Positions 34,858 through 63,891 of a stretch of DNA of 64,000 bases are shown one piece after another. This stretch comes from Massalongia carnosa. Lineage: Eukaryota. The notes beneath the pieces are model-generated. The model did no database searches and had not been told where the DNA came from. It saw only the letters and a program-made list of their open reading frames with translations. Made by a program: the position numbers and the translations under genes. Within the stretch, counting starts at the first letter, position 1; each line of letters starts with the position of its first letter. The DNA lies in contig OZ287073.1 in NCBI GenBank assembly GCA_965645245.1, positions 2,666,001-2,730,000 of the forward strand, in the 5' to 3' direction.

Positions 34858-35871
34858 ATGACGAACACCCGTTCCCAAAGCACCCCGATGGACGACATAG
34901 TCCCCGACTCCCAGGAGATTGTCGGATTGACGCAGGCCCAATCCAATCAAATCTTCGCCCTACAAAAGAAGAAAGCCGAGGCAGAAGCGAAGGCGGCCGA
35001 GGCTGAGGCTAGAATTGCCGAGTCCAAGGCATTGGTCGCCGAGAAGGAGGTGGAAAAAATGCAGCTAGAAATCGACTGCATGCGCCGAGAATCTGACGCC
35101 CGAATAGCGGCCGTCATTCCTGCTGGCAAGCCGAGTCGTGTCGTCGGCGATGACGACGAGGACCTAGGTGAGATCCCTCTCGAAGTAAGAAGTATAGCAC
35201 CCCGTTTCGCGGGCCTACCACAGGACGAGATCATCAAGATCTTTTCAAATAAATTCAAAGCCATCAACCTCTCCCGCCTCCGACACATGCACGGCATGCA
35301 ATACGAGTCATACAAGGATCAAGACCGCATCGGCATCGAAGACGGCGCCTTGAGGTTGAGAAAGGCATCCGGGACCTACAAAGATTTCGGAAAGACAGTT
35401 CATGACGTCTGGACCGAGAGCTTCATCAACTACACCTCGATCATGGTCAGTCTTTTCGGGAAATCGAGTCAACAGCTTCACGCCACCATGTCGGCATTCC
35501 ACGGAAAAATCCTCACGCTGGCCAAGGTGTACGAGTGGCAGGAAGCAGTCCTCCCCTTCGCCATCGAAACCCACACTCACATCATCGCGTCTCAGCCATC
35601 CGACGCATCCCAATGGAAAATGCCCGACGAATTCCAAGCTCGATTCTGCACCCCCCTCACAGTCCTACGCCGTCGCCGCTCACGATCCCCGCCGTCCCGA
35701 CGACCGACCCCGAGAGGAGACAGGGCCGATAGGGCCGAGAAGGCAGCGGGGGAAATCTGCGACAAGTACAACAGCGGCACCTGCACCTGGCCGTCGTGCT
35801 ACCGACAGCACAAATGCAAATCGTGCGGCGCGGCTGGGCATGGCCAGAAGACATGCCCAACGAAGAAATAG
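34858..35871 (+). CDS. YR-1 gag-like ORF1
   Basis: Coiled-coil N-terminus and a C-terminal CDKYNSGTC..C..H.C..C...H....C finger, shared with ORF1 of YR-2 and YR-3. Confidence 0.85.
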   Translation: MTNTRSQSTPMDDIVPDSQEIVGLTQAQSNQIFALQKKKAEAEAKAAEAEARIAESKALVAEKEVEKMQLEIDCMRRESDARIAAVIPAGKPSRVVGDDDEDLGEIPLEVRSIAPRFAGLPQDEIIKIFSNKFKAINLSRLRHMHGMQYESYKDQDRIGIEDGALRLRKASGTYKDFGKTVHDVWTESFINYTSIMVSLFGKSSQQLHATMSAFHGKILTLAKVYEWQEAVLPFAIETHTHIIASQPSDASQWKMPDEFQARFCTPLTVLRRRRSRSPPSRRPTPRGDRADRAEKAAGEICDKYNSGTCTWPSCYRQHKCKSCGAAGHGQKTCPTKK

Positions 35872-37619
35872 GGGGTTAGTGCAGGAGGCAGTAGAATAGC
35901 TTCAATAGCTGAATTCATGACGTCCCATCCCTGCTTACCTGCACCAATCAGACCAAATACAATCCCTTTGTTTCAACTCGTAGACGCATCTCGTCAGCGT
36001 TTGAAAGACAGCCCATCTCCCCTCGTACCGTCCGCATGGGCAACTCTACTTCAAGAGTATCCGGGCCCCCTCCGAGTCCATCTGCCCATGATCCTTCGTT
36101 TCGGAGTACAAATCGGATACGAAGGCCCCACAGACATCCTTCGGATCGAAAAAAATCTGACATCAGCGAATGAGGACCCGGAAACGATCGAGAATAAGCT
36201 CCAAGAGGACCTCAGGAAGGGCCGAGTCAGACGAATAGCCGCCCCGAGTCAGCCATTTGTGGCCTCCCCCCTCGGCTTGGTCCCGAAACATGACGGAGGA
36301 TGGCGACGCATTCATCATCTGTCTCATCCCAATCAAACATCAGTCAACGACAAAATTCCAGAAGAGGCATCCAAATTACAATACGCCAGACTCGACGACA
36401 TTATTCAATTGATTCTGTCAGAGGGCAAAGGTGCTGTCATAGTGAAAAGAGACGTCAAAGACGCCTTTCGAAACGTTCCCGTCGCACCTCATCATCAATG
36501 GCTTCTGGGTTTCGGATGAAATGACGAATTCTACACCGAGACATGCCCTTCGTCGGACTGTCGACGGCCCCGTTCATCTTCAATCTTTTTGCGGAAGGCT
36601 TTCATTGGATTTTGGAATCCTTTCTACAATGGAGATTACATCACTATCTAGACGACTTCGTTGCAATTTTCCCATCCGAGACATCGTCAGAACGATTGCA
36701 CCAAGAAACAAAAGCCTACAACATTCTCACCGACATTCTTGGCAACCCGAGAAACGACTCAAAAGACGCCGAGGGAACGACAGCGACAGTCTTCGGACTC
36801 GAGGTCGACACCATCAACAGTCTTATTCGTCTGCCAGCGGACAAGCTGGAAAAAGCGAGAATCATCACTACAAAGGCACTAAACGAGACGACAATCGGCC
36901 TCGGCGACATGCAGTCAATAGCGGGCTTCCTAAGCTTCTGCGCACAGGCAGTCAAATTGGGCCGAGTCTTCTTACGATTATTCTGGAATTTTATAGCCTC
37001 ATTTCCCTCGGGCAGTCATCGTCGGGTCAAAAGAAGAATTCCCACATGGGTCAGACAGGATCTCATCTGGTGGAACAAACTTCTAGTGGACTTCAACGGT
37101 ATTGTCTTCTTCGAGACGTCAACACGAGACACGATCAAGGTGCATACGGATGCATGCCTCACGGGTCTCGGAGGCTATTTTCAACAAGACAACGAGCTCG
37201 TGAATCAAAAAAACGCATGTAGGGCCCGAGTCCTAGTCCTCAATCAGGAAGGATCACCGAGCATAAACGTCCGAGAAGTCGAAGCTATCCTTCTAATCCT
37301 TCAGAAATGGGCGCCGACATGGCGACATCGACAGATCCTTGTCTTTACCGACAGCAACACAGCATACACAGGATTCACGAATCTAACCCTCAAGGGACCG
37401 GCCAACGCGCCTCTACGAGAAATACTGTCCATAGCTGCAAAGTGGGACATCGTACTACGTTGTCAATGGATCAGTGGCACTTCCAATGGACTAGCAGATG
37501 CCCTGTCACGTTTTGATGATGAAAGATTGGCTAACTTTTGCCCTCATTGGCAGAACCCATACAATTCGATGAACCTCCCTCCACCTACCTATCCTCCACA
37601 CCAGGGTCAGCCCTGGTAA
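35872..37619 (+). pseudogene. YR-1 RT-RNase H (stop at 36517-36519, frameshift near 36550)
   Basis: SPLGLVPK..GGWRRIHHLS, KRDVKDAFR, HYLDDF, HTDAC and LADALSR. Confidence 0.9.
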
Positions 37620-61819: not shown

Positions 61820-62864
61820 CTACGGTGGTGCTGTTCGGAACGTGGCGGGGGGTCGTTGAAAACGAAGGGAGGTCGCTATTAATTGGTCCGGGAGTGTCTG
61901 AATGTACAATTGATACGAGTCTGATTTCCATCGGCCCAATGTCTGAATATCTTCCTCTAGCAAGCCCGAGTTTTTGGCCGTTGTTGCTGCACCCCGTCGA
62001 AACGAATGACCCGAGTAATTCCCTCGGACGCCAAATGCCCGGAGGCCACTCCGTAGGGCCTGCACTAAATATTCACGAGTGAAGGCCTTGTCCTGAACCT
62101 GGAACAATGGGGACGATGCTGGTTTCGGGAATCGGGTAAACAAGTTCCGAATGGAGGTGATCAAGCATGCTTCGTCGTTTGTTGCTGCGATATAAATTTT
62201 TCTACCCCTTCGAAAAGGATCCGTCTTGGATGACGGTAGGGAAAGAATTATTCGATCCGCCTGTAGATCCACCGATTTCCTAGTTAAATGCCATGAATCG
62301 AAGCTGGAGTCTTGCATTTCTCCCTGTTTGTAGGTAAATTCCCCCGCTCTTAAGAAGGCAGCGAATACGATGCTGTATGCCGCATGAAGTGTTGCCTGGA
62401 CCTCGTTAGTAGTGTCTAGTTTCCGTAGCAATTTTATTAAAATGTTGCGTGTGATTGGTAGCCTTTCTCGTCTTTCTGGTTCACCGTGCATTCGTTTTAT
62501 TCCCGCTATTATTCTGTCTAGGACTGGATGGTGAAAGACCTCCAGGTCCCCTAGGCCCATGACCAATTGGCTCGATCGTACTCCAGCTAAATAGGTTTTG
62601 ATGGTTTTGGGGCGGAGCCCTCGCTGACCCAGGGCGGCTATCCATGCCGAAAGGCTTCGAAATGTCGCTGGAAAGGGAGGGAAATTCGTTGCCAATTGAC
62701 AGTGGGTCGTGTAGCTTTTCCGGGCTGCATCGTATAGCCCTCGAGTCCTAATTGCTATGCCCCACCATAAATACTGGCTGCTCGGCGATCCAGCGGAACC
62801 TCGTTATACCAAGTCTCTGGAGGGTCGCGGGCGAGTGACGCCGTTATTTGTTCGATGAAATGCC
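61820..62864 (-). pseudogene. YR-4 tyrosine recombinase (1-bp frameshift near 62775)
   Basis: FLRAGEFT, SKTDPFR, HSFRRG and LGRWKSDSYQLY. Confidence 0.9.
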
Positions 62865-63891
62865 CTGCAGGTTGGGGTAATTGTCAGCGATTTTTCCAAA
62901 TAGTCCTCGGGACAACCAATCTGCTAAGAAATTTTCTTTGGTAGACAGCCAGTGTGGTTCAATCTCAATGTCATATATTGCCGCCATCATGGCGATATTC
63001 CGGAGGGGATGCATGGCCCCGCCTCGAATGGAGGTCTTTTTGACCCCGGACATTACAGCAAAGCTGTCGCAATAAAGAAGAAGATGAGCTCCCTTGCACA
63101 TGGGGAGCCACCGCCATATGGCGTGCAAAATCGCTGTCATCTCCTTCTCATTGATATGTTTGGCTCTGAGCCTGGTGGTATAACGTTCAGAAACCACTTG
63201 TTCAGCGGGCAATGTGTGTGTGGTCTGACCACCTTGAAGTATGTATGCCCCGATTCCGAAGTCCCCACTGGCATCCGTCCAGAGACGGAGCAGGGGTCTC
63301 GAAGGGCTAATAATGTGTATGCCGTTCCATAATGGAAGGAAATGATGCCACCATAAAAGATCAGCTTTTATGTGAGAATTGATATGAATAAATAGGCGCG
63401 CGGGCCCGATTTTGCTGTTGAAAAGGCGTCGGAGAAAGGTTCTTCCCGGTACCACCACTTTGGCTGCAAAGCACAGAAATCTCAGCAAAGTGTCTAGCTC
63501 GTTTCTGGCTATCGTGGATTTATTCAATGTTGATTGGACGAGATCCTTAGCTTTCTGAAGCTTTTCGGCCGGTACTCGTGCCTGCATCAGGTGTGTGTCC
63601 AGCTCTATGCCCAGGAATTCGACTACCGTGCCTTATTTATTTTTCTTTTCGTTGATTTTTAGGCCGAGGTCTGAACAAATTTCGGCAAAGTTCCGATCGA
63701 AGGATGCCGCATCGGGAATAGCGCGAACGATTCCGAGAAAATCGTCCAAGTAGTGAATAACTTCGCCATTTGTTTTATTAATCATCATCCAGTTCAGACC
63801 TTTCGCGAATAAGTCAAACAAGAAGGGAGACGTCCTGAGGCCGAATGGAAGAAAGCGTTCTATCCAGTAAACCCCGTTCCAACAAAAACCC
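62844..63891 (-). pseudogene. YR-4 RT-RNase H, 5'-truncated, with a stop at 63633-63635
   Basis: LGFCWNGVYWIERFLPFGLRTSPFLFDLF begins right at the telomere junction. Confidence 0.9.

Follow-up and report, generated by a model that had tools for sequence, protein, structure and literature searches.

Conserved splice-like signals suggest a spliced route to the recombinase of Ngaro-type retrotransposons in Massalongia carnosa

The DNA analyzed here is a stretch of 64,000 nucleotides (nt) from Massalongia carnosa (contig OZ287073.1 of assembly GCA_965645245.1, positions 2,666,001 to 2,730,000), hereafter the window. It holds four Ngaro-type tyrosine-recombinase retrotransposons, YR-1 to YR-4, in which the open reading frame (ORF) of the tyrosine recombinase (YR) has no early start codon and overlaps the RNase H end of pol. 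We observed a branch-point-like pentamer and an AG exactly where this frame opens, and both are conserved at the nucleotide level across diverged relatives. Thus, we hypothesize that splicing of a donor in gag to this AG yields a protein in which the N-terminal part of Gag (GagN) is fused to the recombinase, a model to which, taken as a whole, we give a probability of about 0.5. The preliminary description of this DNA had proposed that the recombinase is expressed by removal of a large intron; the comparison across lineages favors a real 3′ splice site, while the donor proved to be the weaker half of that proposal.

Ngaro retrotransposons were reportedly described by Goodwin and Poulter in 2004, and to our knowledge neither the founding paper nor a 2015 review proposes splicing. 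The elements carry gag, reverse transcriptase (RT)/RNase H and YR genes between repeats in the order A1...B1-A2...B2, have no methyltransferase, and possess a YR ORF that is frameshifted and overlaps pol, an offset for which the available text of the two sources offers no mechanism (PMC3783388, PMC13465315). The accessible part of PMC3783388 contains neither “intron” nor “splic” (0 occurrences). The accessible parts of PMC3783388, PMC6681497, PMC13465315, PMC7192593 and PMC8547959 confine their mention of splicing to an artificial marker intron of DIRS-1, and do not propose it as a route to YR. Within these portions of the literature, such a route is not described for the Ngaro class.

Four Ngaro-type elements lie in the window

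A phmmer scan of all six frames of the window found exactly four Ngaro-like elements, with the gene order gag, RT-RNase H, YR:

34798-38701, plus strand: YR-1, phmmer extent
34858-38701, plus strand: YR-1 from its gag ATG (34858); in-frame gag stop TAG at 35869-35871, YR frame 37535-38701
41942-46441, plus strand: YR-2, phmmer extent
42131-46441, plus strand: YR-2, degraded, from its gag ATG (42131); in-frame gag stop TGA at 43244-43246
50739-54616, plus strand: YR-3, phmmer extent
50399-55343, plus strand: YR-3, whole and intact element, with ORFs in the order gag, RVT_1 plus RNase H, Phage_integrase
50399-50698, 54653-54800, 54795-55094 and 55196-55343: YR-3 split direct repeats A1, B1, A2 and B2
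50832-51983, plus strand: YR-3 gag, ATG at 50832, in-frame stop TGA at 51981-51983, then CTA
51984-53600, plus strand: YR-3 RT-RNase H ORF, in the frame of gag and inside the proposed intron
53561-54616, plus strand: YR-3 recombinase frame, −1 relative to pol, first ATG about 105 codons in
61820-63998, minus strand: YR-4, phmmer extent, truncated by the window end; its 5′ part, and with it gag, lies outside the window, leaving the RNase H end and YR

The Pfam families RVT_1 and RT_RNaseH match the pol ORFs, and Phage_integrase matches the YR ORFs of YR-3 and YR-1 below the Pfam cut-off. No methyltransferase family of Pfam matched any element ORF, the feature that separates Ngaro from DIRS. In YR-3, the one copy whose repeats were delimited, the 300-nt pair is 99% identical and the 148-nt pair 100% identical, they stand in the Ngaro order A1...B1-A2...B2, and only 36 nt separate the YR stop from B1. 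Gene order, split repeats, missing methyltransferase and a frameshifted, overlapping YR are thus shared with known Ngaro elements; here, in contrast to these, the frame offset coincides with a conserved branch point, an AG and a distant donor.

Three of the four copies are damaged: the pol of YR-1 has one frame break near 36520, that of YR-2 is spread over several frames with its YR in three pieces, and the YR of YR-4 has a one-base frame break near 62760. As the preliminary description had stated, the YR frame of all four copies lies in −1 over the RNase H end and carries no early ATG.

A conserved candidate branch point and AG at the RNase H end

Each copy has a CTRAC pentamer and a downstream CAG in the overlap of pol and YR:

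YR-1, plus strand: branch CTAAC 37531-37535, CAG 37551-37553
YR-2, plus strand: branch CTGAC 45473-45477, CAG 45493-45495
YR-3, plus strand: branch CTGAC 53557-53561, first CAG 53571-53573, second CAG 53577-53579
YR-4, minus strand: branch CTGAC 62887-62883, CAG 62867-62865

These positions agree with those reported before, as does the spacing of exactly 15 nt between the pentamer and the CAG chosen at that time in all four copies. Because the stretch is coding, homology alone would keep both this spacing and the phase constant. Read in the pol frame, the site is GCT-RAC, two codons, Pro, two codons and CAG (A-[DN]-x-x-P-x-x-Q), and the YR frame opens at the stop (TGA or TAA) within CTRAC. In the available part of PMC2483917, CTRAY is the general branch-point consensus given for basidiomycetes and ascomycetes.

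The YR-3 recombinase has 1480 database homologues at expect values (E) up to 1e-5. Metagenome contigs were scanned with an alignment of such homologues (A2), and the best 80 of 453 confirmed loci were compared. Including the window copies, 72 copies were anchored on the RNase H C-terminus and grouped by shared 11-mers into 49 lineages, each of which enters the lineage counts with one representative.

The residues [A/T/S][D/N] occupy the site in 43 of the 49 lineages, and CTRAY is likewise found in 43/49. The codon before D/N ends in T in every one of these (43/43), compared with a background of 0.214 for NCT among Ala/Thr/Ser codons of the same pol ORFs. The D/N codon ends in C in 40/43 (background 0.60), and the Gln codon 9 nt downstream is CAG in 36/37 (background 0.50). 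Neighboring columns of the same alignment, 55 codon columns in all, served as the control for kinship of the copies: with Met and Trp set apart, the commonest third base reaches 1.00, 0.93 and 0.86 at the three site columns, compared with 0.30-0.76 elsewhere. The earlier judgment that a splice signal fits this site better than protein constraint is supported, as 43 lineages keep the same bases at the synonymous positions of CTRAC and CAG even though the residues alternate between Ala and Thr and between Asp and Asn. Neither a conserved frameshift site nor free variation of the CTRAC and CAG bases, two of the outcomes named beforehand as contradicting splicing, appeared across the lineages.

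Counting from 8 nt beyond the branch A, the first AG lies 13 nt from it in 36 and 19 nt from it in 4 of 43 lineages. It is a CAG in 41/43 and has the required phase in 40/43, the three exceptions being damaged copies. The counts support the preliminary description on a conserved 3′ site and less so on which AG would be used: the CAG at +9 is general (36/49 lineages), while the one at +15 that it had picked occurs only in the window clade and the clade of lineage L007 (7/49). YR-3 has both, its first AG being 53571-53573, so that exon 2 would start at 53574 or 53580, either of them in frame.

The −1 stop falls on one homologous codon in 44 of 49 lineages. Across the 26 lineages that align without gaps, the pol frame is well conserved as protein as far as A-P-Q-L; about five codons follow with low conservation in either frame, and from Q-P-P-x-x-W onward it is the YR frame that is highly conserved. 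Between the RNase H end and the YR motif, 34 of 43 lineages have no ATG after the −1 stop, and nine have one. Taken together, these sequence comparisons make a conserved branch point and AG module exactly at the opening of the YR frame well supported, and suggest that the 3′ site is probably used for splicing.

A candidate donor in gag

The three copies that retain gag each contain a GT that could serve as the 5′ splice site:

YR-1, plus strand: G|GTGAGA at 35167
YR-2, plus strand: G|GTGCGT at 42527
YR-3, plus strand: G|GTATGG at 51282-51288; exon 1 would end at 51282, the first base of Gly codon 151

All three donors were found where the preliminary description had located them. They interrupt a GGT (Gly) codon after its first base (phase 1), 12-13 codons upstream of a conserved F/Y-P motif of gag, and show the features of a fungal-type 5′ site: a purine at +3, G at +5 and a phase that keeps the frame. 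By a rough home-made weight matrix, not fitted to the host, the YR-1 and YR-2 donors rank first among all GTs of their gag, and the YR-3 donor third among 16 phase-1 GTs.

In 17 of 26 anchored lineages, and in most clades, gag has a phase-1 GT at a distance of 10-18 codons ahead of the F/Y-P motif used as anchor (two of the 26 anchors, those of L005 and L079, are probably false); codon usage would predict 0.25. The hexamer is GTGAGA in nine lineages; the others have GTAAGA, GTGGGA, GTAATG, GTGCAT, GTGCGT or GTATGG. In the largest clade, of 19 lineages, column −14 reads xGT in nine, compared with at most four in any of 44 other columns. The codon after it ends in G, the donor +5 base, in 19/19, while the commonest third base of other columns reaches at most 15. 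The residues at the donor vary (G or S, followed by E, K, N, A or M), and GT followed by a purine is kept. No other conserved phase-1 GT was found in the alignable part of gag in this clade. Sequence conservation thus supports the donor much less strongly than the acceptor.

Predicted fusion frames and a database protein of the same architecture

When donor and acceptor are joined in silico, YR-1 gives an open frame of 485 amino acids (aa) across an intron of 2386 nt, and YR-3 one of 496 or 498 aa across 2291 or 2297 nt. In YR-2 the joined frame (intron 2968 nt) ends after 245 aa in later damage to the YR. The in-frame GagN-YR fusion claimed for three copies therefore holds in that the frames are open at the junctions, with YR-2 broken further on; their common spacing and phase are not independent coincidences, as what the three copies share was inherited as a single property.

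The database contains one protein built like the predicted GagN-YR fusion. This protein, P0018 (sources ncbi and lgn; 513 aa), far exceeds in length the other homologues listed, 120 of the 1480, and carries a long N-terminal extension; its residues 32-110 match YR-3 gag (residues 108-180 of the open frame) at 38% identity (E 5e-7). The matched part of gag is coiled-coil-like and stops two residues before the donor codon, and a complete recombinase follows in P0018, after a linker about 20 residues longer than predicted for YR-3. When the P0018 N-terminus was compared with every ORF found in the window copies and the 80 loci, YR-3 gag was its only match. A search with the window Gag N-terminus returned only the window gag (1 of 437 candidates), and one with the P0018 N-terminus only P0018 itself (1 of 310 candidates). 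Pairing of the 3′ site with the gag G|GT is the best available reading of the 5′ side, drawing on the less conserved gag site and this one database protein.

Spliced retrocopies were also considered and discarded: six loci with a YR seemingly lacking an upstream pol hold degraded or truncated pol, with no adjoining GagN.

Splicing weighed against other routes to the recombinase

A number of observations speak against the splicing model, and we set them out here together with the explanations that they favor. The first concerns the frame relation. Translational recoding, that is, a −1 shift from pol within the overlap at a non-canonical site, would make the recombinase the C-terminus of a Pol or Gag-Pol polyprotein. 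It would directly explain why YR is −1 to pol in 65 of the 70 copies in which both the RNase H end and the YR start could be placed (same frame in three, +1 in two), including clades that lack CTRAC (L030, L061, L073). It also agrees with PMC3783388, whose available text calls the YR ORF “frameshifted” and overlapping. One intact lineage on long contigs (L002/L003/L018) has TCGCAG in place of CTRAC. It has no −1 stop at the site and a pol/YR overlap of about 400 nt, and retains CCC CAG as well as the gag G|GTAAT. In the clade of L007, L008 and L010-L013 alone, an in-frame A_AAT_TTA heptamer stands three bases before CAG TAG, the pol stop, about 15 nt past CTAAC; judging from the sequence, a −1 frameshift operating alongside the splice module is plausible there. 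Finally, P0187 and P0140 have the RNase H end and YR fused in one frame, and relatives of the P0187 kind argue that a Pol-YR fusion can be functional. P0187, P0140, P0134, P0139, P0166, P0185 and P0197 measure 568-1593 aa and end in the recombinase; they represent either lineages with a single frame or intron-containing gene models.

As in programmed −1 frameshifting, the overlap is short and the downstream ORF has no start codon; the slippery heptamer and stimulatory structure of that mechanism were sought here and not found. A canonical X_XXY_YYZ heptamer occurs in the overlap of 0/4 window copies and 2/43 lineages, the same rate as in control windows (7/161). The YR-3 overlap (53556-53680) folds no better than shuffled sequences (z −0.05), and 24 aligned lineages show no conserved structure, the value of about −2 kcal/mol being reached by 5-15 of 100 column shuffles in a model that leaves pseudoknots out. 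Recoding also leaves the fixed third bases of CTRAC and CAG and the homologous −1 stop unexplained. We therefore regard it as rather unlikely.

The second group of observations concerns the nature of the conserved bases. The T of CTRAC doubles as the first base of the −1 stop, and a conserved stop, for which no reason is apparent, fits that base too. CTRAC and CAG might accordingly be kept for a required −1 stop or as a cis element of replication, without being splice signals, in copies that are YR-defective or depend on recombinase supplied in trans. The damage to three of the four window copies agrees with this, as does the statement, in the available part of PMC4408805, that splice signals in fungi are low in information and appear by chance. 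Against it, YR-3 has intact ORFs and terminal repeats that are 99-100% identical, and stands at very high depth in one sequencing run (see below). The recurrence of the ATG-less arrangement in 34 of 43 diverged lineages argues that it works, and what the three fixed positions spell out is precisely a branch point with its first AG. A non-splicing role for these bases appears improbable to us.

The third group bears on the donor. The donor GT is absent from nine of the 26 anchored lineages, and also from L023, a lineage with each of its three ORFs in one piece that has GGC GAG at the donor. The GT is present in 6/6 anchored copies with intact pol and YR and in 18/25 damaged ones, a difference that is not significant (Fisher P 0.29). 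Changes from G to S at the donor are single steps from GGT and provide weak independent evidence of constraint.

It could thus be that the 3′ site is real and the 5′ exon another one, with the donor elsewhere (in the leader, at another GT of gag or at a GC) or with an internal promoter and the recombinase's own or a non-AUG start. The acceptor evidence far exceeds the donor evidence, which speaks for this alternative. An ATG does occur in nine of 43 lineages after the −1 stop and ahead of the YR motif; among the 24 database homologues of alignment A2, at least 7 have their initial M three codons upstream of DPP; and the pol stop is overlapped by an ATA codon in YR-3 (ATAG) and YR-4 (ATAA) only. 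On the other side, the remaining 34 lineages lack such an ATG, the M starts in the database may be GTG or TTG calls of a prokaryote-type gene finder, and the alignable gag offers no other conserved phase-1 GT. We consider a different 5′ exon quite unlikely.

Two related candidates were rejected. Termination and reinitiation would meet ATA, not ATG, over the pol stop of YR-3 and YR-4, and it fits other clades poorly; the pol stop of the largest clade is found 87 nt past the anchor, beyond the YR motif. A short intron between pol and YR finds no shared GT in the right phase within the 150 nt before CTRAC (best 11/39 lineages).

The last group concerns direct traces of the predicted product. The source of P0018 could be a transcript, a gene model with an intron or a genomic copy that has suffered a deletion. 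Among contigs of four sequencing runs of unknown kind, perhaps DNA, none that covers YR-3 (50699-54652) joins 51282 to 53574 or 53580. These contigs pass 53580 unbroken, and the only joints, in one low-depth contig, have ends other than GT/AG. From runs of this kind the result says nothing either way about splicing. In run X1 the word depth of YR-3 is uniform, at about 21000 across 50699-54652, with the other three runs reaching 130-450, 2 and 2; the depth of X1 reflects either a very high copy number or amplification in the sample. At position 52780, all four runs have T where the window has G.

A model for recombinase expression

The model builds on the observed signals, their conservation at the nucleotide level, the continuity of the frames and the lack of frameshift signals; from these we infer the use of the sites, the choice of donor and the role of the shared N-terminal part. 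Unspliced RNA would act as genome and as the message for Gag, and in the window clade it would also give Gag-Pol by read-through of the leaky in-frame stop. The YR frame, without a start of its own, would begin right after a 3′ splice site within the last RNase H codons, made up of the CTRAC branch point and the first AG 13 or 19 nt beyond the branch A. The donor would be the phase-1 G|GT located where the variable N-terminal part of Gag gives way to its conserved core. Excision of 2.3-3.0 kb would leave a subgenomic mRNA whose product has the Gag start codon and about 100-150 N-terminal residues of Gag fused in frame to the whole recombinase. One possibility for the shared N-terminal part is that it lets the recombinase join Gag assemblies.

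If the model is right, it would answer how a startless YR ORF offset from pol is expressed, a question left open so far, and it would explain why the recombinase is missed or shortened by gene finders. Annotators would gain a rule, namely CTRAC, a short spacer and CAG where RNase H ends, and a new kind of protein, made of the Gag N-terminus and the recombinase, would be predicted. Subgenomic splicing, known in retroviruses and a few LTR (long terminal repeat) elements, would reach a third class of retroelements, and there would be a handle on possible control of these elements by the host through splicing.

Similar arrangements are known elsewhere. In avian leukosis and Rous sarcoma viruses, env takes the AUG and first codons of gag, and foamy-virus Pol is made from its own spliced mRNA. 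With such retroviral subgenomic mRNAs, the proposed route shares a single genomic transcript, a suboptimal donor in or near gag, an acceptor inside pol and a borrowed Gag start. In contrast, the product here would be the integration enzyme and not the envelope, and would carry about 100-150 Gag residues; the window elements have neither LTRs nor a DDE integrase, and their splice sites are predicted ones. In rice tungro bacilliform virus ORF IV is expressed by splicing, and copia and BARE form spliced gag-only RNAs. As in the present model, loss of a large intron from a pregenomic RNA either links a short 5′ reading frame to an ORF further on or alters the ratio of products. These, however, are other classes of element in other hosts, and RNA evidence exists for them.

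The gag-pol junction and a possible second acceptor

Of the 36 loci in which both ORF ends are present, 12 have gag and pol in the same frame, interrupted by a single stop. The contexts of the gag stop are as follows:

TGA CTA: YR-3 (51981-51989), YR-2 (43244-43252) and L079
TGA CTC: the L002 clade
TAG GGG or TAG GGA: YR-1 (35869-35877) and the L007 clade

Such contexts are known to be leaky, and Gag-Pol in the single-stop clades probably arises by read-through of the stop.

The largest clade (L021 4170-4400, L026 1795-2252, L042 921-1158 and others) is organized differently. There, a conserved C|GT TAG closes gag, the roughly 110-340 nt between gag and pol are rich in pyrimidines, and pol is in −1, +1 or 0 relative to gag across intact lineages. 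A conserved block of GCT[CT]AC, 11-12 nt and AG stands 86-92 nt before the conserved pol start. Its phase fits a phase-1 donor, and the frame is open into pol in 7 of 12 lineages. By its sequence, this block looks like a second acceptor or a sign of a gag-pol intron; GTTAGY at the gag end, with a pyrimidine at +3, is atypical for a donor.

A more speculative idea, which we hold to be unlikely, is that Ngaro elements use the host spliceosome for alternative splicing in the manner of retroviruses, one phase-1 donor where the Gag N-terminal arm ends being joined either to the acceptor at the RNase H end, which would yield GagN-recombinase, or to one about 90 nt before the conserved pol start. In that case each enzyme would inherit the same Gag arm and could enter Gag assemblies without a polyprotein, and this would be the first class of retrotransposons, beyond retroviruses and pararetroviruses, shown to express its enzymes in such a way.

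Other transposons of the window

In the remainder of the window we saw no host gene, only other transposons, which form a nest in positions 1-34000:

1-3141: copia
5548-9468: LINE (long interspersed nuclear element)
9905-15216, minus strand: gypsy
18689-22807: gypsy
22948-23808: Tc1/mariner
28023-33774, minus strand: gypsy

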